64,000 nt of DNA from Patescibacteria group bacterium (GCA_018971685.1 JAGXAG010000004.1:2416-66415), one strand, 5' to 3'; counted from the first letter of the stretch, positions 6,005-54,960 are shown. Made by a program: numbers and translations. Notes: generated from the letters alone by a model not told the origin.

Positions 6005-9080
<3,076 letters not shown>

Positions 9081-15120: not shown

Positions 15121-15185
15121 TTACGGCTCGATTACAAACCGATAACATTTTAATGACAAAGGTCTAACGGAATGGTGACTTTTTC
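15121..15185 (-). promoter_or_regulatory. conserved promoter module copy A (TTGTCA - identical 17-nt spacer - TGTAAT), oriented toward the 12165..15113 gene
   Basis: The reverse complement reads cctTTGTCAttaaaatgttatcggttTGTAATcgagccGTAAT. Same module as copies B, C and D. Confidence 0.5.
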
Positions 15186-15351: not shown

Positions 15352-15410
15352 ATAACAAATTCGTCATTAAAATGTTATCAGTTTGTAATCAGATTGTAAT
15401 TTCGAATCGG
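15352..15410 (+). promoter_or_regulatory. conserved promoter module copy B upstream of toxin gene 1
   Basis: tTCGTCAttaaaatgttatcagttTGTAATcagatTGTAAT. The ATG of MPYEKD… lies about 15 nt downstream, giving a near-leaderless transcript. Confidence 0.5.
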
Positions 15411-15961: not shown

Positions 15962-15998
15962 ACTCCCCCTACTTCCCCGCGTTCAAGAGCGCCCTGGC
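15962..15998 (-). pseudogene. fossil 3' end of a peptidoglycan-binding-domain gene (…ARALLNAGK*)
   Basis: ccccctacttccccgcgttcaagagcgccctgg is about 85% identical to 16597-16633, which encodes …ATRALMNAGK* of the intact gene 16604..18367. It is part of the tandemly duplicated toxin unit. Confidence 0.4.
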
Positions 15999-16004
15999 GT
16001 TAAA

Positions 16005-16057
16005 TTTTCGTCATTAAAATGTTATCGGTTTGTAATCAGATTGTAATTTCGAATCGG
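16005..16057 (+). promoter_or_regulatory. conserved promoter module copy C upstream of toxin gene 2
   Basis: cgttaaattTTCGTCAttaaaatgttatcggttTGTAATcagatTGTAAT. Confidence 0.5.
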
Positions 16058-28084: not shown

Positions 28085-28150
28085 CGCTGATTACAGTCTG
28101 ATTACAAACCGATAACATTCTGATGACAAAAGTTTAACGGAATGATGACT
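28085..28150 (-). promoter_or_regulatory. conserved promoter module copy D, about 160 nt upstream of the rpsF-ssb-rpsR operon
   Basis: The reverse complement reads ccgttaaactTTTGTCAtcagaatgttatcggttTGTAATcagacTGTAATc. Same -35/17-nt spacer/-10 as copies A-C. Confidence 0.45.
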
Positions 28151-33253: not shown

Positions 33254-34609
33254 TCAGCCCATAATTTTCTGGCAACGCCGTGATATGTCTTTTTCCATCA
33301 CCCTCTCCTGTTTCCCGGTATCCCGATCCCTCACCGTCACGCCAGCGCCTTTTTCGACAGTTTCAAAATCAACAGTGACGCAAAACGGCGTGCCGATTTC
33401 GTCTTGTCTGCGATACCTCTTGCCGATATTGCCGTTGTCGTCAAATTCCACCGCGGCAAACTCTTTCTTCAACATGCCGAACACTTCCCTCGCCTTTTCA
33501 ACCAGCTGTGGCTTGTTGCGCAATAATGGAAATACCGCGATTTTCACAGGCGCAAGTTTGGGCGGAAGTTTCAAGAAGACGCGCTTGTCTTTTGCAGTAT
33601 CCGCATCCGTCGCCGCGGCGCCCATCTCATCTTCGGAATAGGAATTGCATAAAACCGCTTCGACCAGCCGATCAACGCCCAAAGACGGCTCGATCACATG
33701 CGGAATAAAACGGCTCTTTGATCCTTCGTCAAGATATGAAAGGTCGACTCTGCTCTGTTCCGTGTGATTCTTCAGGTCGAAATCTGTGCGATAAGCGATG
33801 CCGAATAGTTCTTTGCGGCCGAACGGATAGTCATATTCCACATCGATCGTCCGCTTCGAATAGTGCGCGCGCTCGCCGTCCGGGACTTCAAATTCATGGA
33901 CTTTGTCATTACCGATGCCCAGATCGGCCAGATACGCGAGCGATTCGTTCTTCAATTCATCGAAAGACTTTTGCCATTCGTCCGGCCGAACAAAATACTC
34001 TATCTCCATTTGCTCGAATTCGCGCGAACGGAATAAAAAGTCGCGCGGCGCTATTTCATTCCGGAATGCCTTGCCGATTTGGGCCATGCCGAAAGACAGT
34101 TTCGGGTGGAAAGAGTCAACCACATTTTTGAAATTCACGAACATGCCCTGCGCCGTCTCCGGGCGCAAATACGAAACCGACGACTCGTCTTCGACCGCGC
34201 CGACATGCGTTTTGAACATCATGTTGAACTTCTTCGCCTCGCCCAAGGTACCGCCGCATTCCGGGCATACTGTTTTTCCAAGGTCCGACTTTGGGATTTG
34301 GTCGGCGCGAAAGCGGCTCTTGCACTTTTTGCATTCGACCAGCGGATCCGAGAATCCCGAGACATGCCCGCTTGCCTGCCACGCCTCCTGACGCATCACG
34401 ATCGCCGCGTCGATGCCGTACATATCTTCCCTGTCCTCTACAAACCTCTTCCACCAAAGCTTCTTAATATTATTCTTCAGCGCCAAACCGTAATGCGCAT
34501 AATCCCAAAACCCGGCCAATCCGCCGTAAATTTCCGACCCTTGATAAATAAAACCGCGCCGTTTGCACAGCGAAACTATTTTATCCGTCAATTCGTTTTT
34601 GTTTGCCAT
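33254..34609 (-). CDS. glyQS: glycine--tRNA ligase (alpha2 homodimeric type)
   Basis: MANKNELTDKIVSLCKRRGFIYQGSEIYGGLAGFWDY…FRNEIAPRDFLFRSREFEQMEIEYF…, class II motifs. Confidence 0.9.
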   Translation of the reverse strand: MANKNELTDKIVSLCKRRGFIYQGSEIYGGLAGFWDYAHYGLALKNNIKKLWWKRFVEDREDMYGIDAAIVMRQEAWQASGHVSGFSDPLVECKKCKSRFRADQIPKSDLGKTVCPECGGTLGEAKKFNMMFKTHVGAVEDESSVSYLRPETAQGMFVNFKNVVDSFHPKLSFGMAQIGKAFRNEIAPRDFLFRSREFEQMEIEYFVRPDEWQKSFDELKNESLAYLADLGIGNDKVHEFEVPDGERAHYSKRTIDVEYDYPFGRKELFGIAYRTDFDLKNHTEQSRVDLSYLDEGSKSRFIPHVIEPSLGVDRLVEAVLCNSYSEDEMGAAATDADTAKDKRVFLKLPPKLAPVKIAVFPLLRNKPQLVEKAREVFGMLKKEFAAVEFDDNGNIGKRYRRQDEIGTPFCVTVDFETVEKGAGVTVRDRDTGKQERVMEKDISRRCQKIMG

Positions 34610-34615
34610 GTAAAA

Positions 34616-34731
34616 TTTACAGTTTACAATGATAAGTTATCAGTTTAAGTGAAAAAAATAAAATTTCAAGTCCTTTGTCGTCATTCATATTAGTCATATC
34701 TCGCTAATAACTTATCATTGTAAACTGTAAA
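34616..34731. repeat. REP-like palindromic element, copy i (24-nt perfect arms ttacagtttacaatgataagttat / its reverse complement, about 66-nt spacer)
   Basis: Lies between the stop of 34732..36675 and the start of glyQS. The core is GATAAGTTATC. The spacer contains tttgtcgtcat, which resembles the module -35. Confidence 0.55.
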
Positions 34732-36675
34732 CTACCTCACCACCGTCTCCATGCCGTTTTTGTAACTCGGGTCTGTACTGAACCTTGTCGTCAAATAACT
34801 CTGCGTGGCTGTCAATTTTTGGCCGGTAAAGTCGTCCATGGCTGTCATGGCCGCATCGTTCACGATCGTCGGAATACTGTTCACTTGGTTAACATTCGGC
34901 TGTACCGACACTTGGAAATCGAGCTCTTTGCGCGTGCCGTTACCAACCGTGTAAGTTCCGACAGTACCGGCATTCCAAACAACCGAGTTCGTAGAAGACG
35001 AGAAGCTCACATCTTCCGTCTGCGGACTGAAATTCCCGGTCCATGTCACATATGGCGGCAGAGTCGCAGTCACTTGAGCATTGTCTATGATATTTGTCGT
35101 ATTGTCGATTGTCCAGATGACAGTATAGGTTGTTTGTTGGTCGGCTTTTGGCGGTATTGGACCGGTATTAACGAACGGACCTATTGTCCGCGCCACTCTG
35201 CCTGACAAAGTCGGCACGGTTGAGATGCGCACCGTTCTGGCCGCGATCGAATTTAGGGACTCGGGAACTCCCGTCTCCTGCGTGCGTTTTCCCGTGACAG
35301 CCGCCGAAAATGACAGTGTCGGATTTACCACCGGCTGGCCCGACAAACTGAGGTCGCGTGGCGTGATGGAGAACGACACTGTGCCGCTTTCTCCCGCACC
35401 TACCGAAGCCAGCTGTGGTACTGTTTGCTGATTCCAAATGATTTGGTCGGTAGCGGAATTATAATATCCTTGTCCGGGCTGGACCAGCGTACGGTCATAA
35501 GCCGTACCCGAAAGCTTGAGTGTGATTTGCGCATCTGACACCGCGTCCGGCAGATTGTTGAACCATGAGACATCCACGCGCACCGGCTGGTTGAAACTGC
35601 CTGTAGCCGGCGCCGCGGACTGATCGCCGTCTATCGATATACCCACCGTCATGAACGGCTTCTGGATGGCAATATCCTGCTCCGCCGATACGAACTCTGT
35701 GCCGATCACGCTATGATCCGTATTGCTCCGTGCGCCGACATTGAACCTGAAGACGCGCGTATCCGTGTTTTCTCCCTCCAATTTGCCATGAATGGTGAAA
35801 ATTTTCTCCGCGCCCGGCGGCAAATCACCTAGACTCCAAGTGGCGTTGTCCGGCAACGGTTTCAAGTCCGAAGAGACAAAAGTGTACCCGAAGGGATACG
35901 ATGCCGCAACCAGCACATTCTTCAAGATGTCGCTAGTATTGGACTTGACATCGACTTTCATGTCGAATTCTTGACCTGAAGTTATTTCCTTGAATGAAGT
36001 AACTGTCAGGTTTACCGGCGAAGAATTGATGAGTACGGCATAAGTTTGTTCCTTGGTAAATGAAGACGATGAACCCTTTATCTGGTAAGTCAAATCGGCG
36101 GTTATTTGCTTTTGCAAGTTTTCTTCGCCGAAAATGATCGCTTGTACGGTCCGGTGTACGCTCGCACCCGACGGTATGTCGCCCAAAAGCTCGCGATAAG
36201 TGGTCAGAGCGGTTCCGGGATTTTGCGGATCGGTCGCGCCGGCCGGAAAATTCACTGCCAGGTCAACAAGCTGGAGATCAACGCTGTTCTTATTGGTTAC
36301 GGTTATATCGAAAGATACGGGGGTGCCGCCGGGTATAGATACGGGGCCGCTTATGGTTATGTCTATATTGTCGGCAGATATTAGATTGGAACCGTTAAAA
36401 AAGAGGTAAGCGCCGATGCTCACGGCAATCACGCAAAATATGGCGGATCCTATCAACAACTTGGTAAAAAATGACATGGAATGGTCTTCATATTCTCTGT
36501 TCAAAACGGGCTTTATCGGTTCTTCCGGCGGTCTGTCCCAACCGGTTTTTATGCCGCTTACATTGTCGCCGAACCTGAACTTTCTCCTGGTACGCACATC
36601 GGGCGAGCCCCTCGAGTATAGGGAATTTTGCAATTCATTTATTTGATTCCCGCCTTCTCCTTGCACGGAATCCAT
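34732..36675 (-). CDS. hypothetical large membrane-anchored extracytoplasmic protein
   Basis: 647 aa. One N-terminal TM helix (LIGSAIFCVIAVSIGAYLFF). Repeated beta-rich, Ig-like segments. Unassigned. Confidence 0.45.
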   Translation of the reverse strand: MDSVQGEGGNQINELQNSLYSRGSPDVRTRRKFRFGDNVSGIKTGWDRPPEEPIKPVLNREYEDHSMSFFTKLLIGSAIFCVIAVSIGAYLFFNGSNLISADNIDITISGPVSIPGGTPVSFDITVTNKNSVDLQLVDLAVNFPAGATDPQNPGTALTTYRELLGDIPSGASVHRTVQAIIFGEENLQKQITADLTYQIKGSSSSFTKEQTYAVLINSSPVNLTVTSFKEITSGQEFDMKVDVKSNTSDILKNVLVAASYPFGYTFVSSDLKPLPDNATWSLGDLPPGAEKIFTIHGKLEGENTDTRVFRFNVGARSNTDHSVIGTEFVSAEQDIAIQKPFMTVGISIDGDQSAAPATGSFNQPVRVDVSWFNNLPDAVSDAQITLKLSGTAYDRTLVQPGQGYYNSATDQIIWNQQTVPQLASVGAGESGTVSFSITPRDLSLSGQPVVNPTLSFSAAVTGKRTQETGVPESLNSIAARTVRISTVPTLSGRVARTIGPFVNTGPIPPKADQQTTYTVIWTIDNTTNIIDNAQVTATLPPYVTWTGNFSPQTEDVSFSSSTNSVVWNAGTVGTYTVGNGTRKELDFQVSVQPNVNQVNSIPTIVNDAAMTAMDDFTGQKLTATQSYLTTRFSTDPSYKNGMETVVR

Positions 36676-36748: not shown

Positions 36749-37396
36749 TTACAGGTGTGATTCCTTTATGGCCTTATTTATGTGTTTGTTCAAAAGCACC
36801 CGCTTTGGAACCAACACATCCAATAATTCAGTGTTGATTTCGCATGATTTCAAACGATCGCCGAACTCAGCCGAGTCGCCTATATAACCAAGCAGGCGCA
36901 AAATCCTGGCGACGGTCAATGACTCCAGTGTCGACAGTCTCTCCGCGTTCAACTCCGGTTGTTCGCAATTTTCCAAGAATTTATTGCACTCCAAGACGCA
37001 GTCGAACAATTCCGGATGCGCCTCTTCGCCGTGAAGAAACTGCTTCAATAATGCAGCAATCTTCGCGACGAGTTCGAGGGAGTCGCCCGAGACGGAACAA
37101 GCCGGTTTTTGCGCAATCGGCGAATGCTGCTCGCAAAAACCGGCTTGTTCCGTTTCGGGCGCCACTATTTCACATGCATCCGTCAATCGCCAAAATTCCC
37201 TGCCGCGCACGAACGAAAATTCACCGAAAGAATAATTCTGGACAAATGGCCGCAATTTCGACTTTTCCAACCGTATTCCCTGCGCCGATGCCATGACCAG
37301 TCCCAGATCCTTCGTGAAGATGAATAAAATCTTGCCGGCGTCGCCGTAGGTTTTCGACGCGATTACCAATCCACAAGTGGTGCGTATTTCATGCAT
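36749..37396 (-). CDS. recO: DNA repair protein RecO
   Basis: N-terminal OB-fold-like GLVIASKTYGDAGKILFIFTKDLGLVMASAQGIRLEKSKLRPFVQNYSFGEF. Start overlaps the ileS stop. Confidence 0.65.
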   Translation of the reverse strand: MHEIRTTCGLVIASKTYGDAGKILFIFTKDLGLVMASAQGIRLEKSKLRPFVQNYSFGEFSFVRGREFWRLTDACEIVAPETEQAGFCEQHSPIAQKPACSVSGDSLELVAKIAALLKQFLHGEEAHPELFDCVLECNKFLENCEQPELNAERLSTLESLTVARILRLLGYIGDSAEFGDRLKSCEINTELLDVLVPKRVLLNKHINKAIKESHL

Positions 37397-40300
37397 TATT
37401 CTTTCAGGCCGAATGATTCTCCGACCTCAATCGCTCTAAGTCCCGTTGCCTTCTTCAGTTCATTGCCATATTTTTTCACCAAGCCTTCCAGATCTTTCGT
37501 AACTTCAAGTACGGCAATATCGCCCACCGTCAATCCTTTTTCCTTGCGCAAGTCCTGAATTTTTCTTATAAGTTCGCGAAGGTCGCCCTCCTCTTTCAAT
37601 TCCGGCGTGATATTCGTGTCCAACTCCACTTCACCGGCGATCGAATCGTCGAATACGACTTCTTTTACATTTACTTCATCCCTTATAAGTCTCAATAATT
37701 CCTCATTCAAGGCCTCGGATTTTTTATTCGATTTGCCATTTGAATTTTTTACTTTAAGCTTTGCCAACGGCTGGCGAACATTTATTTTGGCCGCCATTCT
37801 CGCCTCCAACCCTTTCGACGCGATTCTTCTCACTTCTTCCATATCATCCAATAATTTATGCTCACCTGTGTCGGGTTTGCCCCGCGAAGCTTCGGCGTAG
37901 TGGGGCCACTCTTCCAAGTGTACGCTTTCCAGCTGACCACCCGCTTCTTGGTACAAATAATCAGCGAAGAACGGCGTAAACGGCGCCATTATTTTCGCCA
38001 GCGTGATGAGAATATACTTCGTCGTATTCAAGGCCTCTTCCCTGCTTTTACCGTCTTCTTTGAACCGATCCCTGGATCTCCTCAGATACCACTGCGAGAG
38101 ATCGCCTACGAAATCGCGGATAGCGCGCGTCGGCTCGAAGAATAAATAGTCGTCGAGATTTTTCGTGACATTCTCGATCAGCCAATTCATTCTGGAAACA
38201 ATCCACGCGTCAAGAACATTTTTCGAAGCGGTTTTGGTTATTGTTTCTTGGTTATTGGTTATTCCCCCTGTATACAGCTTATAAAACGCCAGTACATTCC
38301 CTGCCAAGTTGAAAACTTTCTTGACCGTTTCGTCCACCGTCTTCTCGTCGAAATTTTTTGAATCCCCCGCCTGATTGATCGAATACATCCAGAAGCGCAA
38401 GGCATCCACGCCGTATTTTTCCATCATTTCCCACGGATTGACCACATTGCCTATATGCTTAGACATTTTCTTACCCTTGGCGTCCAATAAATGTCCGAGG
38501 CACACGACATTCCGGTAAGCCTTGCCTTTGCCCATCAAAGTTCCCACGGCATGCAATGTGTAGAACCAGCCGCGCGTCTGATCGATGGCTTCGGAAATGA
38601 AATCCGCCGGATAACTCTTTGATTGGTTTTCGCCAGGCGCACCATCTATGTATTCTTTGTTCTCGAACGGATAGTGGTCCTGCGCAAACGGCATCGCACC
38701 GGAATCGAACCATACATCCATGACTTCTTTCACTCGCGACATTTCACCGCCGCATTCGCACTTGAGCTTAACTTCGTCGATGAACGGGCGGTGCAGATCT
38801 AGCTCGTATTCGGCATTGTGAGGCAATATTGAGAAATCGATTTTGCGCACCTCGGCTTTATCCAAGTATTCGTTCATTTCGTACTCGATTGATCCCGCCC
38901 TATCCAACCCTTTAGCAACCGCCAGAAGCATGACGGCAGGCGTACCATGGGTGATGATTAAAATTTTTTTACCTTGGTATTTCGATTCTATTTCATATAA
39001 AAAGTCGCCAACTCGGTTTTTTATCGAACCGTACAGTTCGCCCCTGAGCGGCATTATCTCGAACCTCTGTTGGAAAGGGTATGAATCGGCAAAACCGGCG
39101 CCATTTTTTCTGTCCCAATCACCGAAACCTAGTTCGTGCAGACGCTCGTCCGTTATCACCCGACTTTTATCGAGGCCGAGCTTCCCCCTCAATATCTCAG
39201 CCGTCTCCTGAGTTCGAGTCAGAGGTGAAGTGAATATGATATCCGGCAACGCTTCCTTGAATATATCTGCGGCTTTTTCTACTTGTTGCCTACCGGCTTC
39301 AGTGAGATGATATCGTTCTTTCGGATCGTCATCCAAAATGCCCGCCACATTATTTTCCGCCTCGCCGTGACGCATGACAAAATAGGTATTGCGCGGCTTT
39401 TGCTTGATCTCTTCGACCGAACCGACAACTCGCCTCTTGCCGCATTTATCGCATGACCATACCGGCAGCGGCGTGCCCCAGTAACGCTCGCGGGAAATCG
39501 CCCAATCTTTTACTTCGCGCAACCATTCGCCGAAACGGCCTTCCTTGATGTGTTCCGGTTCCCAATGGATACCTTCGTTCTCTTTGACCAGCACATCGCG
39601 CAATTTCGACATGGCGATATACCAAGAATCGCGCGCGTAATAAATAAGCGGCGTATGGCAGCGCCAGCAAAAAGGATAATTGTGCTCGTATTTTTCCTTG
39701 GCGAACAAAAGCTTGCGACTCGCCAAGTCTTTTATTATCGCCACATCGGTCTTCTCATCTTTGACAAAAGCACCTGCCAAGAACCCAGCCTCTTTCTTGA
39801 ATGTTCCGTCTTCATTCACCAGATGATACTTCGGCAAACCGACTTTGCCGCCAAGCACAAAATCATCCTGACCGTACATGACCGCCGTATGTACGATGCC
39901 CGTACCGTCATCCGTAGTGACGAAGTCAGCACCACAGACCTTGAATGCATTGCCGAGTTTTTTCTTCTCTTCACCGGAAATATTGTCGGACAGGAACGGA
40001 TATAGAGGTTCGTATTGAAGATTGACGATGTTGTATCCTTTTAATTGGGAATTCACTTCAACAAAAGCGTGATGCCCTTGAGGTATAGGCATAAATGTAA
40101 GCCTGTCTTTTGCAATAAAATAAACCTCCGGCAATATTTTATCTGAGACATCTTCAATCAATCTTACTCGTACATAATCAATTTTTGCACCGACTGCCAG
40201 AGCAACATTCCCTGGCAAAGTCCATGGCGTCGTTGTCCAGGCTAATATAAATGTATTGTCATCACTCATGAAATCACCGATTTTCTGCCCGACTTTGACT

Positions 40301-40932
40301 TTAAACTTCACCGTCACCGCCAAATCCTTAACATCTTCATACCCTTGCGCCAATTCATGGGAAGATAATGCGGTGCCGCATCTGGGACACCACGGCACTA
40401 CCTTGTAGTCCTTGTAAAGCAATCCGTCGTCGTCAACCTTTTTGACAATATTCCAAAGGGATTCAATATATTCCGGCTTGTAGGTAATATATGGTTTTTT
40501 CAGATCAATCCAATAACCGATCCGATCGGTGAACTCTTCCCATTCGTGCACGAATTTCCACACGCTTTCTTTGCATTTGTCGTTGAATTTGGCGATGCCG
40601 TAGCTTTCGACTTCTTTCTTAGACTTCAGGCCGAGCTCTTTTTCAACCTGTATTTCAACAGGCAAACCATGCGTATCCCAGCCGCCCTTGCGCCGCACAT
40701 GGTAGCCGCGCATGGTTTTGTAGCGCGGTATAGCGTCCTTGAAGGCGCGCGCCTCGAGATGGTGTATGCCCGGGTGGCCATTCGCGGTCGGAGGACCTTC
40801 ATAGAAAATAAATTCTCCTTTTGGCGCCTTGCCCGCCGGCCATTTATTCAGGGACTTTTCGAAAATACCCTTCTCTTTCCAAAAAACCAGTACCTTCTCC
40901 TCGCGCTTTGCGTAAACGGATTTTTTATCCAT
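37396..40932 (-). CDS. ileS: isoleucine--tRNA ligase carrying an internal histidine-phosphatase (PGAM-like) domain insertion
   Basis: HIGH-type motif PPTANGHPGIHH; DWAISRERYWGTPLPVW; KMSKHIGN. Between the two zinc-knuckle halves (CDKCGKRR … KCECGG) sits a ~197-aa segment RNTYFVMRHGEAENN…ITHGTPA with the RHG/H motifs of the histidine phosphatase superfamily. Confidence 0.9.
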   Translation of the reverse strand: MDKKSVYAKREEKVLVFWKEKGIFEKSLNKWPAGKAPKGEFIFYEGPPTANGHPGIHHLEARAFKDAIPRYKTMRGYHVRRKGGWDTHGLPVEIQVEKELGLKSKKEVESYGIAKFNDKCKESVWKFVHEWEEFTDRIGYWIDLKKPYITYKPEYIESLWNIVKKVDDDGLLYKDYKVVPWCPRCGTALSSHELAQGYEDVKDLAVTVKFKVKVGQKIGDFMSDDNTFILAWTTTPWTLPGNVALAVGAKIDYVRVRLIEDVSDKILPEVYFIAKDRLTFMPIPQGHHAFVEVNSQLKGYNIVNLQYEPLYPFLSDNISGEEKKKLGNAFKVCGADFVTTDDGTGIVHTAVMYGQDDFVLGGKVGLPKYHLVNEDGTFKKEAGFLAGAFVKDEKTDVAIIKDLASRKLLFAKEKYEHNYPFCWRCHTPLIYYARDSWYIAMSKLRDVLVKENEGIHWEPEHIKEGRFGEWLREVKDWAISRERYWGTPLPVWSCDKCGKRRVVGSVEEIKQKPRNTYFVMRHGEAENNVAGILDDDPKERYHLTEAGRQQVEKAADIFKEALPDIIFTSPLTRTQETAEILRGKLGLDKSRVITDERLHELGFGDWDRKNGAGFADSYPFQQRFEIMPLRGELYGSIKNRVGDFLYEIESKYQGKKILIITHGTPAVMLLAVAKGLDRAGSIEYEMNEYLDKAEVRKIDFSILPHNAEYELDLHRPFIDEVKLKCECGGEMSRVKEVMDVWFDSGAMPFAQDHYPFENKEYIDGAPGENQSKSYPADFISEAIDQTRGWFYTLHAVGTLMGKGKAYRNVVCLGHLLDAKGKKMSKHIGNVVNPWEMMEKYGVDALRFWMYSINQAGDSKNFDEKTVDETVKKVFNLAGNVLAFYKLYTGGITNNQETITKTASKNVLDAWIVSRMNWLIENVTKNLDDYLFFEPTRAIRDFVGDLSQWYLRRSRDRFKEDGKSREEALNTTKYILITLAKIMAPFTPFFADYLYQEAGGQLESVHLEEWPHYAEASRGKPDTGEHKLLDDMEEVRRIASKGLEARMAAKINVRQPLAKLKVKNSNGKSNKKSEALNEELLRLIRDEVNVKEVVFDDSIAGEVELDTNITPELKEEGDLRELIRKIQDLRKEKGLTVGDIAVLEVTKDLEGLVKKYGNELKKATGLRAIEVGESFGLKE

Positions 40933-41265
40933 GCCTTACAGCTTACGGCAATTCCGGCTGTTTTTCAATTCGCCTGTATACACCTGCAAATGCGGTCCGG
41001 AATCATATCAACCCACCAATGATTCCGCTACCTTAGATAAGCCGTGGAAGTATTTTCTCCTTCATGCGGACATTCTAGCAGAGAGTTCGCAGAAAATATG
41101 CTTGACAAATAATGTAAAATTTGATAAATAATAATCGGGGTTGGTCCAATAGATAAGGTTCGGAGGTTATCCGCACGCGCAAAGCTCCGGTCCAGTGTGC
41201 GCCGTGCGTACCTTGTCATCCGATCACCGGCTGATCCTATCAGCCGATCGGTTCCTCACAAAATC

Positions 41266-41313
41266 TCCTTCTCTCCCCTCCGCAGTTTGCCATAGATTGC
41301 GGAGCGGGAGAGA
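41266..41313 (-). terminator. glyA terminator hairpin (ctctccc-c-tccgcag … ctgcgga-g-cgggagag)
   Basis: Immediately 3' of the glyA stop. Confidence 0.5.
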
Positions 41314-41318
41314 AATCA

Positions 41319-46375: not shown

Positions 46376-46537
46376 AAGTGAGGTGTCGCATTTTCAAAGG
46401 AGGAAACTGTCCGAGCGCGGTTGAAATTTCCGGACAAAACACGAACCGTCATGTCCTCGTGAGTGTTTTGTCCTGAAATTTCCCGCGCGAGTTTTTCCGA
46501 CTTTGAAAATACGACACCTCACTTTTATTTGACCTCA
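46365..46537. repeat. 173-nt nested quasi-palindrome (outer 36-nt arms with 1 mismatch, inner 20-nt arms) spanning the convergent stops of the DHFR-like gene and rplK
   Basis: Outer arms gaggtcaaataaaagtgaggtgtcgcattttcaaag (46365-46400) and its reverse complement (46502-46537). Inner arms gaaatttccggacaaaacac / gtgttttgtcctgaaatttcc. Both flanking proteins end …EVK*, encoded by the arm sequence gaggtcaaataa. Confidence 0.7.
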
Positions 46538-46947
46538 ACCCCCATCTGCCGCGCAGTCCCAGCAATAATCTTCATCGCCGCCTCGACATCGCCGGCATTC
46601 AAGTCCGGCATTTTCTTTTCCGCTATTTCCTTCAATTGCGCTTTCGTGATCGTGCCGATCTTTTCCGTATTCGGCTTGCCCGAGCCCTTTTCCTTATTTA
46701 AGGCTTTCAAAATCAGGCTCGAAGCCGGCGGCGTCTTCAGGACGAAATCATAAGTCCTGTCTTCGTAAACCGAGATGACCACCGGGATCATGTCTCCCAT
46801 CATATTCTTGGTGGCGTCGTTGAACTTCTTCGTGAAATCGCCGATATTCACGCCCGCTTGGCCCAATGTCGGACCCAACGGCGGCGCCGGGGTAGCTTTG
46901 CCGGCGGGAGCGATCACCTTTACCTTTTTGATTACCTTTTTGGCCAT
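46525..46947 (-). CDS. rplK: 50S ribosomal protein L11
   Basis: [48 protein letters not shown]…. Confidence 0.9.
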
Positions 46948-46986
46948 ATTGTTTGGTATGCTAGCATAAGTTGATTAATAAACAAG

Positions 46987-47043
46987 TTTACAGTTTACAA
47001 TGATAAATCATCAATTCGCTAATAACTTATCATTGTAAACTGA
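46987..47043. repeat. REP-like palindromic element, copy ii (gtttacagtttacaatgataa … ttatcattgtaaactg)
   Basis: Lies between the nusG stop and the rplK start. Shares tcgctaataacttatcattgtaaactg…cctcac with copy i. Confidence 0.55.
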
Positions 47044-47052
47044 AAATTATCC

Positions 47053-47598
47053 TCACACTTTTTTCACTTGCAAGAAATCCAATTCCACCGGCGTTTCCCT
47101 GCCAAACATCGACACTAGTACTTTAATCTTGCCCCTCTGCGTATCAACTTCCGAGACCTTGCCTTCGAAATCTTTGAACGGTCCGTCGATAACCTTGATG
47201 AGATCGCCGACAGACACATCTATCGAGTGTTCCGCGCCGGCTTTTGACATTCGCGCAAAGAGCGTCTCGACTTCGTTTTTGTCCAATGGCACCGGGAACA
47301 CGCCCGACCCCACGAAACCGGTCACTCGCGGAGTATTCCTGACCACATACCACGAATCATCGGTCACGATCATTTCCACCAAGACATATCCGGGGTATAT
47401 TTTCTCCTCTTCCTCGACTCGTTTGCCGGCCTTGATCTTTATCTTTTTCTCATTCGGCACGATGACCGCGAATATTTTGTCCTCCATGCCGAGAGACTCT
47501 ATGCGTTGTTTCAGATTGCGCGCCACGGCATTTTCATATCCCGCATATGTGTGGATCGCATACCACGCGCGCTCTCCGGTTGATTGTTGTTTTGACAT
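47053..47598 (-). CDS. nusG: transcription termination/antitermination factor NusG
   Basis: WYAIHTYAGYENAVARNLKQRIESLGMEDKI… (NGN) and C-terminal KOW GDLIKVIDGPFKDFEGKVSEVD. Confidence 0.9.
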   Translation of the reverse strand: MSKQQSTGERAWYAIHTYAGYENAVARNLKQRIESLGMEDKIFAVIVPNEKKIKIKAGKRVEEEEKIYPGYVLVEMIVTDDSWYVVRNTPRVTGFVGSGVFPVPLDKNEVETLFARMSKAGAEHSIDVSVGDLIKVIDGPFKDFEGKVSEVDTQRGKIKVLVSMFGRETPVELDFLQVKKV

Positions 47599-47686
47599 CG
47601 TAAGTAAAGAGTAAATTATAAATTATAAACAAATCATAATATTTAAAATTTACAAATTACGAATTGTTTATAATTTAAAATAACAG

Positions 47687-50411: not shown

Positions 50412-51302
50412 TCACTTTGCTTGCCACATGCCAAAAATACCGCAGGGCAATGTCCGAGAGTCAAGGCCGTTCATCTCCGACTCTTTGATCGCCAACTCCC
50501 CTTTTTTGACTTTTCCACCAAATCTCGCTATGAGCGGAAGCAGGACATTCTCGTAAGCGATCGCCGAATAACCGGCCGCATAGCCGTTTATCAGGAAAAA
50601 GAGCGGTTTTTCGGCAAGCAAAGAAAAACACGACTCCATAAGCGGTAGCAAATCTTCTTCGATTTTCCACAATTCCCCGTCCGGGCCGTGGCCGAATGCC
50701 GGCGGATCCATGATTATTCCGGCATACTTGCGTCCGCGCTTGATCTCCCTCTTCACGAATGTCCGCGCATCATCCAAAATCCATCTTACCGGCTTATCTT
50801 TCAAACCCGACAATTCCATGTTTTCTCTCGCCCAAGCGATGGCCGCTTTCGACCCGTCAACATGCACAACTTTCGCCCCCGCCCGCGCGCACGCCATGGT
50901 CGCGCCGCCGGTATAACCGAACAAATTGAGTATTTCAATGTCACCGCTATCCGCAGATTCTGGTACGGTCACATTCTCGGCAATAACATTCCGCAACCAT
51001 TCCCAATTCGCCGCCTGTTCCGGAAAAATCCCCGTGTGTTTGAAAGGCGTCGGTTTGATCCAGAATTTCATGCCCGCAAAATCGATCGGCCAGCGCGCGG
51101 GGACATTCTTGCCCAAAGACCAATCGCCCTTATTCTCATCACGGCTGAATACGCCGTCCGCTTTTCTCCATTCCTTGGCATCAAGCCTTTTGCGCCACAA
51201 CGATTGCGGATCCGGCCGCGATAGAACGACTTTCCCGTAACGCTCCAATTTCTCTCCTTCTCCGGAATCTAGAAGTTCATAGTTTTCTGACGATTCGGTC
51301 AT
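50412..51302 (-). CDS. class I SAM-dependent rRNA methyltransferase (RlmI/RlmK-like)
   Basis: …ILNLFGYTGGATMACARAGAKVVHVDGSKAAIAWAREN…ILDDARTF…AGIIMDPPAFGHG…. Confidence 0.75.
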   Translation of the reverse strand: MTESSENYELLDSGEGEKLERYGKVVLSRPDPQSLWRKRLDAKEWRKADGVFSRDENKGDWSLGKNVPARWPIDFAGMKFWIKPTPFKHTGIFPEQAANWEWLRNVIAENVTVPESADSGDIEILNLFGYTGGATMACARAGAKVVHVDGSKAAIAWARENMELSGLKDKPVRWILDDARTFVKREIKRGRKYAGIIMDPPAFGHGPDGELWKIEEDLLPLMESCFSLLAEKPLFFLINGYAAGYSAIAYENVLLPLIARFGGKVKKGELAIKESEMNGLDSRTLPCGIFGMWQAK

Positions 51303-51304
51303 AT

Positions 51305-51358
51305 AAAGTTTACGGTTTGCAATTTAAACTGATAACTTATCACCGTGGACTGTAAACT
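51305..51358. repeat. REP-like palindromic element, copy iii (aagtttacgg…gataacttatca…ccgtggactgtaaactt)
   Basis: Abuts the rlmI-like ATG. Its right half lies inside the last 12 codons of the VKOR gene (…TVHGDKLSV*). Confidence 0.5.
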
Positions 51359-51863
51359 TCTTTAGGATTTCCATCGCTGTGACAAAAAGCACCGTCGAAG
51401 TGATCGCTGATCCTATGCAATATACGCAATAGGAGTGAATAACAAACACTTGCAAATAGACAAACCACAATGATGCCGCCAGTCCAAAAACAGTGAACCA
51501 TAGGGCAAAGCGCATCATCCATTCATGCTTGCCCTCAAGATAAGCGAACGCACAAATAAGGATAGTGAGATAATACAATGCGCCCAAAAGCGAGACCGGT
51601 ATCCCCAAAAAAGTCGAGAACGGACTCGAGAGCACCGTTTCGCAGCCGCCGGTCAGGGAACATGGCGGTATCGCGCCCTGGAAATGTTCGATGGTCAAAT
51701 ACGATGCATCGACAAAGCCGGCAAGCGCGACAACGAGCAAGAAGACAACAGCGCTAACGGGCAGTCGACGAAGCGGCCGCGTCAATAATTGATTTAAATT
51801 GGTCATAACTGGATGGATTGGTGATCGCCTTGCCGTTAACGAAGAAGGTTGGCGTGGCGTCAA
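51324..51863 (-). CDS. vitamin K epoxide reductase (VKOR) family thiol-disulfide oxidoreductase
   Basis: CSLTGGCETV… and HSYCVYCIGSAI Cys pairs in TM helices. Likely start MTNLNQ (about 51806). Confidence 0.8.
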   Translation of the reverse strand: MTPRQPSSLTARRSPIHPVMTNLNQLLTRPLRRLPVSAVVFLLVVALAGFVDASYLTIEHFQGAIPPCSLTGGCETVLSSPFSTFLGIPVSLLGALYYLTILICAFAYLEGKHEWMMRFALWFTVFGLAASLWFVYLQVFVIHSYCVYCIGSAITSTVLFVTAMEILKKFTVHGDKLSV

Positions 51864-53846: not shown

Positions 53847-53990
53847 TGAGTTGCGGAAGACAAACCAGTCGTTGGTGTTGTCGAAGTTCTCGACCCAATT
53901 GAGGTTCGCCTTGCGCTTCGAGTCATTCCACCAGACATAGCACGCGTTGCGGTTGCCCTCGAAGGAATTGTACAGGATGCCATCCGTGCC
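53847..53990 (-). pseudogene. partial duplicate (about 80% identity) of the 3' end of gene 54337..54960
   Basis: 53847-53990 aligns with 54337-54480 (ttgcggaagacaaaccagtcg(t/c)tggtg…ccaccagacatagcacgcg…ccctcgaagga…). No intact ORF. Confidence 0.4.
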
Positions 53991-54336: not shown

Positions 54337-54960
54337 CTACTTGCGGAAGACAAACCAGTCGCTGGTGAGGCCGAAGCCCTCGACCCAATCGAGGCTCGCC
54401 CTGCGCTTCGAGGCACGCCACCAGACATAGCACGCGTCGCGGCGGCCCTCGAAGGAACAGTCCGTCGTAGCCACAGCATACATCGGATTTTGTCCGAGTT
54501 GTTCGGGGAGCCTCGGGTGCTGTTCACCGATAGCGAAGGCTTCGCGCGGATGAGTCCGCTTGAGGCCTTTAGTTTCCGCCCATGCAATAGCCTTGTCCCA
54601 GTTGCCGTCGCCGTTCGGGAAGTTCAGGAGGATGAGTTTCTCCTTGACTTTGCCCTTACCGACAGGAGCATATTGGTCCCCCACCTTGCGGACATTGTAA
54701 TCGTTGGGGGTATTGGGACCAGCGGCGTTCACAGCGGCCTGCCACTCGCGGTCCTGTTTCACTTCGACTTCAAGGATATGGACGCGAGCACCTTTCGGCG
54801 CTTCGATGTCCGTGAGTTCAACCTTGAGCGAGTCGAGGAAACGGCCGAATGAGCCATCGTCGAGGGCTTGCTGGAAGCGAGCGCGGCCTACTTGCTTCTC
54901 ATTGGCGATTTTGCGGCCGCATTCCATCTGACTGACAGTTACGGGCATGTATTTGCTCAT
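54337..54960 (-). CDS. hypothetical protein
   Basis: 207 aa, GC-rich coding, no recognised motif. Its 3' end has a decayed copy 350 nt downstream. Confidence 0.45.
   Translation of the reverse strand: MSKYMPVTVSQMECGRKIANEKQVGRARFQQALDDGSFGRFLDSLKVELTDIEAPKGARVHILEVEVKQDREWQAAVNAAGPNTPNDYNVRKVGDQYAPVGKGKVKEKLILLNFPNGDGNWDKAIAWAETKGLKRTHPREAFAIGEQHPRLPEQLGQNPMYAVATTDCSFEGRRDACYVWWRASKRRASLDWVEGFGLTSDWFVFRK

Follow-up and report, generated by a model that had tools for sequence, protein, structure and literature searches.

The three palindromic elements found at gene junctions of the window analysed here, a DNA stretch of 64,000 nt (64 kb), are probably gene-less, MITE-like members of a palindromic family of the intervening-sequence (IVS) type, lodged between protein-coding genes and not in 23S rRNA. 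[quoted passage not shown] What is new here is the occurrence of palindromic, IVS-type repeats outside rRNA, in CPR bacteria; the literature that we searched gave no description of IVP cassettes between protein-coding genes.

Three related palindromes between minus-strand genes

An earlier note on this DNA had described three related palindromic elements, each at the junction of two minus-strand genes, and we found all three again (Table 1), far above chance by two measures. Indeed, allowing at most two mismatches, we counted 10 strand-matches to the 13-mer palindrome TGATAAGTTATCA, spread over 5 sites, where 1.17 were expected, and none of 100 shuffles reaches 10. With a position weight matrix (PWM) of the arm, the window arms score between 29.6 and 42.3 bits, except for one arm of element iii (12.8 bits), the best score across 30 shuffled windows being 14.5 bits. 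Counted in this way, there are 3 copies in the 64-kb window and 1 per relative contig. The direct-repeat families D5 and D6 connect elements ii and iii to element i, and the verbatim stretch previously seen in elements i and ii is the 27-nt tcgctaataacttatcattgtaaactg of family D5. The names first given to the flanking genes (GlyRS, NusG, L11, VKOR and an RlmI-like methyltransferase) were also borne out, and the gene then called hypothetical encodes a DUF11 protein.

Table 1. Position, predicted fold and arm scores of the elements and their neighbours (folds of four copies from relatives are added)
Feature	Position	Strand	Fold (kcal/mol; z)	Arm PWM (bits)	Remarks
glyQS (glycine-tRNA ligase)	33254..34609	(-)			downstream of element i; NF003211, E = 9e-177; ATG 34607-34609
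Element i	34614..34733	(-)	-42.7; z = -7.8	42.3 / 38.9	whole DUF11-protein-to-glyQS spacer
DUF11-domain protein, 647 aa	34732..36675	(-)			upstream of element i; stop TAG 34732-34734
rplK (ribosomal protein L11)	46525..46947	(-)			downstream of element ii; TIGR01632
Conserved stretch beside rplK	46948..46986	(-)			aligns to the L066 nusG-rplK spacer; 3/500 shuffles as good
Element ii	46985..47048	(-)	-30.5; z = -8.2	39.6 / 35.2	nusG stop to rplK; arms ~6 nt apart
nusG	47053..47598	(-)			upstream of element ii; TIGR00922; stop 47053-47055
SAM-dependent RNA methyltransferase (RlmI/RlmK-like)	50412..51302	(-)			downstream of element iii
Element iii	51307..51358	(-)	-9.3; z = -0.6	29.6 / 12.8	VKOR-to-methyltransferase junction; degenerate, merged copy; hardly folds
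VKOR-family gene	51324..51806	(-)			last 11 codons within element iii; likely start ATG at 51806, from alignment with relatives
L009 element			-46.2; z = -8.7		
L014 element			-56.4; z = -10.0		
L035 element			-36.1; z = -4.2		
L058 element			-31.3; z = -3.9		

In element i, the distal arm (34704-34733) and the proximal arm (34614-34643) enclose an interior of 60-66 nt, and repeat finding returned arms of 28 nt (34616-34643 and 34704-34731) that are 96% complementary and lie 60 nt apart. The element had been credited with 24-nt perfect arms and a 66-nt spacer; the spacer stands, and the perfect part has to be corrected to 25 nt. Element iii had been reported to overlap the end of the VKOR gene, and translation agrees: its distal arm makes up the last 11 codons and the TAA stop, giving the protein tail KFTVHGDKLSV, and the VKOR part of the element reads EILKKFTVHGDKLSV, then stop. 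The C-termini of VKOR differ among relatives. More generally, many copies of the family directly adjoin a TAG stop codon.

Over all copies, the total length ranges from 52 to 145 nt (about 60-145 nt for a full copy), with arms of about 24-31 nt and no ORF. The arms are of the type AGTTTACAGTTTACAATGATAAGT... and are made of degenerate 7-nt repeats; their autocorrelation shows peaks at lags 7 and 14, both for the window copies and for those relatives that were tested. Each window arm furthermore contains a small palindrome of its own. Its core, GATAAGTTATC, had been taken for a trait of the family and proved to be confined to this genome, the relatives having TGATAAGTCATTA and TGTAAACTTATCA at this place.

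Most copies form long hairpins over their entire length, with about 26-29 paired positions in elements i and ii. The interiors vary between copies and are self-complementary in each of them, and the outer stem displays no covariation because the arms are invariant. Among the stem mismatches, G.U is not in excess over A.C on the transcribed strand, and there is therefore no sign of selection acting on the RNA rather than on the DNA palindrome. A scan of the window and L009 elements against Rfam 15 gave generic long-hairpin (miRNA precursor) matches only, far below the gathering score.

Long palindromes are unusually abundant in the window genome and comprise several sequences unrelated to one another. 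At the secE-nusG junction, which measures only 9 nt in L066, the window has an AT-rich palindrome (47615..47681, minus strand) with 33-nt arms containing ATTATAA heptamers (-18.3 kcal/mol, z = -5.1), possibly a member of the same class from a different sequence family. Further long inverted repeats, both intergenic, lie at 46364-46406/46494-46536 (43 nt, 93%) and 20899-20937/20980-21018 (39 nt, 95%). Inside recO (36749-37396, minus strand), a near-perfect palindrome of 78 nt (37084-37161; 30-nt arms, 97% complementary) is in frame and corresponds to some 21 inserted residues when compared with the RecO of L009, comparable to the palindromic elements found within genes of Rickettsia.

In the same part of the window, the isoleucine-tRNA ligase (37396-40932) has a histidine-phosphatase domain (His_Phos_1) inserted mid-protein, as it has in L001, L009, L064-L066 and L074. 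The 386-nt intergenic gap at 40933-41318, where GC-rich sequence follows a near-consensus TTGACA-17-TAAATA of the plus strand, is a candidate for an unannotated RNA gene; a search against Rfam found no match in it at E <= 0.01.

Relatives of the elements and element-free junctions

The window, which belongs to a Patescibacteria/Paceibacterota genome, has its GlyRS protein in common with two metagenome-assembled genomes, GCA_028865255.1 and GCA_028870795.1, on whose contigs it is encoded; its NusG is listed under Patescibacteria group bacterium, and the near relatives of this NusG are named Candidatus Paceibacterota and Candidatus Taylorbacteria. Copies of the element elsewhere were sought with an arm pattern of 18 specified bases in one genome per species, which gave three true relatives (L009, L014 and L025) in genomes of Paceibacterota and Parcubacteria; most other matches to the pattern in the genome collection are chance matches in unrelated phyla. 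The metagenome scan added about 10 copies with paired arms. Samples Ga0172379 and Ga0172380 supplied the majority of these, and the sampling is thus narrow, most relatives coming from this one pair of metagenomes. Many other metagenome matches belong to an unrelated single-arm repeat. In viral contigs, a check restricted to the repeat core gave five single matches at chance level, mostly in giant-virus contigs; no match came from the collections of phages and plasmids. As judged from these sequences, with copies in at least 10 contigs besides the window, the family occurs in some Paceibacterota.

The copies of the relatives, about 135 nt long, align over their full length with one another and with the window copies. 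Their layout begins with AG/TTTACAGTTTACAATGATAAGT, then CATTAGTGAAGTG, continues with the variable self-complementary interior, and closes with ACTACAAC, then TGTAAACTTATCAYTGTAAACTGTAAACT. Since the ~135-nt copies at different loci have interior sequence in common, the ORF-less form has been copied as such. The arms of the window and of another Paceibacterota genome (L009) are identical at 22-24 of 24 bases, while the RecO and DUF11 proteins of the two are only 48% and 54% identical, respectively. Near-invariant arms across about 50% protein identity could mean that the elements spread horizontally not long ago, or that a conserved or host protein recognises them. The flanks of the ends are TA in about half of the cases and one change from TA in most others, with no consistent target-site duplication; TA being itself palindromic, it is indistinguishable from an extension of the palindrome.

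The earlier note had proposed to compare the orthologous junctions in relatives, and this comparison found element-free versions of them. The gene order IleRS-RecO-DUF11-GlyRS is common to the window and L009. In L009, the element sits between IleRS and RecO, two genes which overlap in the window and leave no spacer, and the DUF11-to-glyQS junction is without element, its ATG being preceded, at 6 nt, by an ordinary TAGAAT hexamer. More than 100 database proteins are nearer to the window DUF11 protein than that of L009. The same junction measures 40 nt in L074 and is again devoid of the element; in L073, it is occupied by an unrelated GC-rich palindrome (6115-6215) with arms of about 20 nt, GCCTCGCCTTTTGGCGACAC...; hairpin elements seem to land repeatedly at this junction. 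A TACAAT hexamer follows the L073 palindrome, 6 nt before the ATG.

At the second junction, the nusG-rplK spacers of L064, L065 and L066, whose NusG proteins are 87-92% identical to that of the window, are 45-90 nt long and contain no element, and the arm PWM found no match in 20 kb of each locus. The VKOR-to-methyltransferase genes overlap or stand 8 nt apart in L064 and L066. The stretch next to rplK in the window (Table 1) contains the hexamers TTGTTT-N16-TAGCAT followed by a 10-nt leader, and we read it as a putative ancestral rplK promoter and leader, located downstream of element ii. As this rplK-side part of the spacer aligns to the L066 spacer, element ii is probably an insertion upstream of existing rplK signals. 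A decayed copy of the element in the L066 spacer was considered and is unsupported, only the rplK-proximal part aligning significantly. The idea of miniature mobile palindromes, offered at first as a mere alternative, fits these observations: the elements are dispersed across Paceibacterota of about 50% protein identity, occupy non-orthologous junctions and are absent in closer relatives.

Signs of diversity-generating retroelements (DGRs), which are common in CPR genomes, were met in the same loci. Between the methyltransferase gene and folD, L064 (5908-7326) and L065 (6340-7753) carry bAvd and reverse-transcriptase genes of a DGR; the corresponding place in the window is taken by nothing more than an ORF of 172 aa that matches no Pfam family. 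Elsewhere in the window, the two copies of a 117-nt direct repeat (53851-53967 and 54341-54457) differ at 15 positions, and at every one of these the first copy has T where the second has C, G or A. Read on the minus strand, this A-to-N pattern is the signature of a DGR template and variable repeat, with the variable copy at the 3′ end of a minus-strand ORF (54337-54960). The ORFs neighbouring this repeat gave no reverse transcriptase or Avd match.

IVP cassettes with the same type of arms, and other readings of the elements

In L038, identical 31-nt arms, 100% complementary and 422 nt apart, surround a PF05635 ORF (E = 8.7e-19). Homologues of this IVP protein are common in CPR bacteria, and all five distinct IVP contexts that we read (L038, L075, L078, L080 and L081) are bracketed by inverted arms built of heptamers, 32-53 nt long in the latter four. 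The IVP gene is found between RNase J and a lytic transglycosylase in L075, between ScpA and ScpB in L078, between RuvB and YebC in L080, and beside hydrogenase genes in L081. The arm repeat differs in L075 and L081, where it consists of the 7-nt units AGTGCAA and AAGTTAA, respectively; the arms of L078 and L080 are in the window arm family, with AATTTACA.TTATTA.TTTACAATGAAAAGT, and both of these loci have an ORF-less copy with the same arms one gene downstream, within 1 kb. The 64-kb window itself encodes no IVP gene detectable by tblastn, and no transposase among the 25 Pfam families listed for it out of 66.

Intervening sequences of 23S rRNA with an S23p/PF05635 ORF are known in Coxiella, Leptospira and Salmonella. 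In the IVS of Coxiella, which RNase III excises, a terminal stem of 28 bp goes together with tandem heptamers (GACAGAT) and an S23p ORF in the loop (PMC4990558), and IVP ORFs as well as short ORF-less insertions have been described at the IVS sites of CPR rRNA genes (PMC11270868). The elements studied here resemble these sequences in their terminal stem of about 24-31 bp, their tandem heptamers, the PF05635 ORF of some members, the existence of ORF-less versions and a patchy distribution. However, they lie between protein-coding genes and not in helices 9, 25 or 45 of 23S rRNA, and whereas RNase III excision is known for the Coxiella IVS, it is for them a prediction. The window has its own 23S gene (6015-9071, minus strand), in which a hairpin of 28 bp (7743-7804), a 41-nt insertion, lengthens the helix at model positions ~1206-1226; it looks like a short ORF-less IVS at the helix-45 site. 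Its sequence is unrelated to the arms of the junction elements, which have no match anywhere in this 23S gene.

Could the elements instead be classical MITEs, mobilised in trans by a DDE transposase (IS630/Tc1-like, for example, with insertion at TA) and having the IVP gene as an occasional cargo or neighbour? We consider this unlikely. The terminal inverted repeats, the small size, the lack of an ORF and the presence or absence at orthologous sites all agree with such an origin, and so does the TA, or near-TA, at most ends, were it not that TA cannot be told from palindrome extension. But none of the loci fetched contains a transposase or an IS with these arms, the ORF-bearing forms carrying PF05635 only, and heptamer-built arms at every one of the IVP contexts go beyond what hitch-hiking would lead one to expect.

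The earlier note had favoured another role, that of a dual junction module in which a hairpin terminator or insulator is combined with a TGTAAA(C/T) -10-only promoter, with leaderless glyQS and methyltransferase mRNAs as a result. Several observations go in this direction. The proximal arm ends 4-7 nt before the ATG in window elements i and iii, in L009 and in L025; in relatives without the element, ordinary -10 hexamers stand at a distance of 6 nt upstream of the ATG, and leaderless starts therefore look normal in the clade. In addition, TAAACT retains the critical A2 and T6 of a -10 hexamer and belongs to a 9-of-12 match, TTGAAA-16-TAAACT, inside element i, the sole promoter match within the elements in a consensus scan whose rules may not be those of the phylum.

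However, the genes around the elements are found in all orientations. Besides the co-directional forward context (window elements i and ii, L009, L025, L035 and L046), copies occur between co-directional genes in the reverse sense (L041 and L047), between convergent genes (L014, L056 and L058) and between divergent genes (L059). In L046 the ATG comes directly after the arm, which leaves no room for a start site, and the rplK promoter/leader stretch common with L066 lies 37 nt downstream of element ii. Consensus scans found no intrinsic-terminator pattern, that is, a GC-rich stem followed by a U-tract, overlapping elements i-iii, the stems of which are AT-rich with no T-run, and no promoter match inside elements ii and iii or directed outward from them. 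Furthermore, the orthologous junctions of relatives work without the element, and the resemblance that had been seen between the arm and a repeated "promoter module" of the window is at chance level, 186 of 1000 shuffles scoring equally. The variety of gene contexts, the variability of the junctions and the scans thus argue against a dedicated terminator-plus-promoter module, a reading that we now regard as quite improbable; the end of an element may act as an incidental outward promoter. The promoter module itself is a repeat of 40-50 nt, 88-94% identical between its copies (15130-15169, 15360-15400, 15998-16047 and 28090-28139), and it precedes two PemK/MazF-like toxin paralogues, a 982-aa LCAT-domain protein and rpsF-ssb-rpsR.

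The dual role once proposed is close to what is described in PMC2649163 for the Correia elements of Neisseria (CREE/NEMIS), which can be co-transcribed, can serve as RNase III substrates and have ends that can create promoters. Like these, the window elements are short, palindromic, MITE-like and located at gene junctions. The hosts belong to different phyla, the likeness is one of description, and promoter activity and cleavage are only predicted here. We know of no link between CREE and any IVP gene. The enterobacterial ERIC/IRU sequences, which are imperfect palindromes (about 127 bp) found between genes in regions that are transcribed, also combine a sequence highly conserved between species with differing locations; their host lineage is unrelated to ours and this analogy, too, holds by description only.

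REP sequences and RAYT genes typically form lineage-specific pairs, unlike the identical arms found here across about 50% protein identity. It is accordingly very unlikely, this and other points considered, that the elements belong to a REP/REPIN system of REP doublets copied by a RAYT, a Y1/HUH transposase. They do share with REPINs, as defined in PMC3337134, two inverted units of about 25 nt with a spacer, folding into a long hairpin, as well as their non-autonomous and intergenic nature, and the small palindrome within each window arm would suit a REP unit. Yet this internal palindrome is not kept in relatives, no Y1_Tnp gene adjoins any copy, and the only Y1_Tnp seen, in L081, has unrelated hairpins; heptamer-built arms, arms kept across divergent genomes and a low copy number set the family further apart from REPINs, and no RAYT was found in the loci fetched. 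The label "REP-like" given at first is apt for the hairpin shape; actual membership of the REP/RAYT group is, as said, very unlikely.

Lastly, it is hardly credible that the arms are operators for a DNA-binding regulator recognising TGATAAGTTATCA and/or the TTTACAG repeats and co-regulating translation-related genes: the 13-bp palindrome is strongly over-represented, the arm sequence is invariant with no covariation and the downstream genes in the window are glyQS, rplK and an rRNA methyltransferase, but the palindromic core is not conserved in relatives, where other genes, unrelated to these, lie downstream (recO, a PD-(D/E)XK nuclease, the 3′ end of a DUF2207 gene) and the same junctions are found without elements.

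A model for the junction elements and its implications

If the window elements are gene-less members of the IVS-type family, copies would arrive by insertion into short spacers, filling them from stop to start, and one of them would supply a stop codon. Read-through operon RNA would then fold, at elements i and ii, into perfect duplexes of 24-30 bp, and RNase III would cut these stems as it does in rRNA intervening sequences, thereby separating the upstream and downstream cistrons. By analogy with rRNA and with the Correia elements of Neisseria, we tentatively suggest that this RNase III step might break the coupling between nusG and rplK and that between the DUF11 gene and glyQS. If the outward-facing TGTAAAC/TAAACT end has a promoter-like effect, that effect would be incidental.

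A bolder proposal, to which we attach little probability, is that the heptamer arms are recognition sites of a pentameric, Avd-like IVP, and that the cassettes and the ORF-less copies together constitute an unrecognised mobile element of CPR bacteria, moving without a conventional transposase and perhaps with the help of a DGR reverse transcriptase. Were it true, the origin of 23S rRNA intervening sequences and of S23p ORFs would be explained; to our knowledge, intervening sequences and their S23p/IVP ORFs have been without explanation since the 1990s. The idea that IVSs are mobile elements and that their ORF aids movement is quoted in PMC4990558. ORF-bearing and ORF-less copies with the same arms at variable sites now make this old idea testable in silico.

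The genomes of CPR bacteria (Patescibacteria) are small and usually thought to be repeat-poor. The present family places palindromic repeats of a mobile type inside core operons (secE-nusG-rplK, scpA-scpB and ruvB-yebC-ruvC) and shows that they can also rewrite the end of a gene, and the model predicts that RNase III would cut at specific operon junctions.
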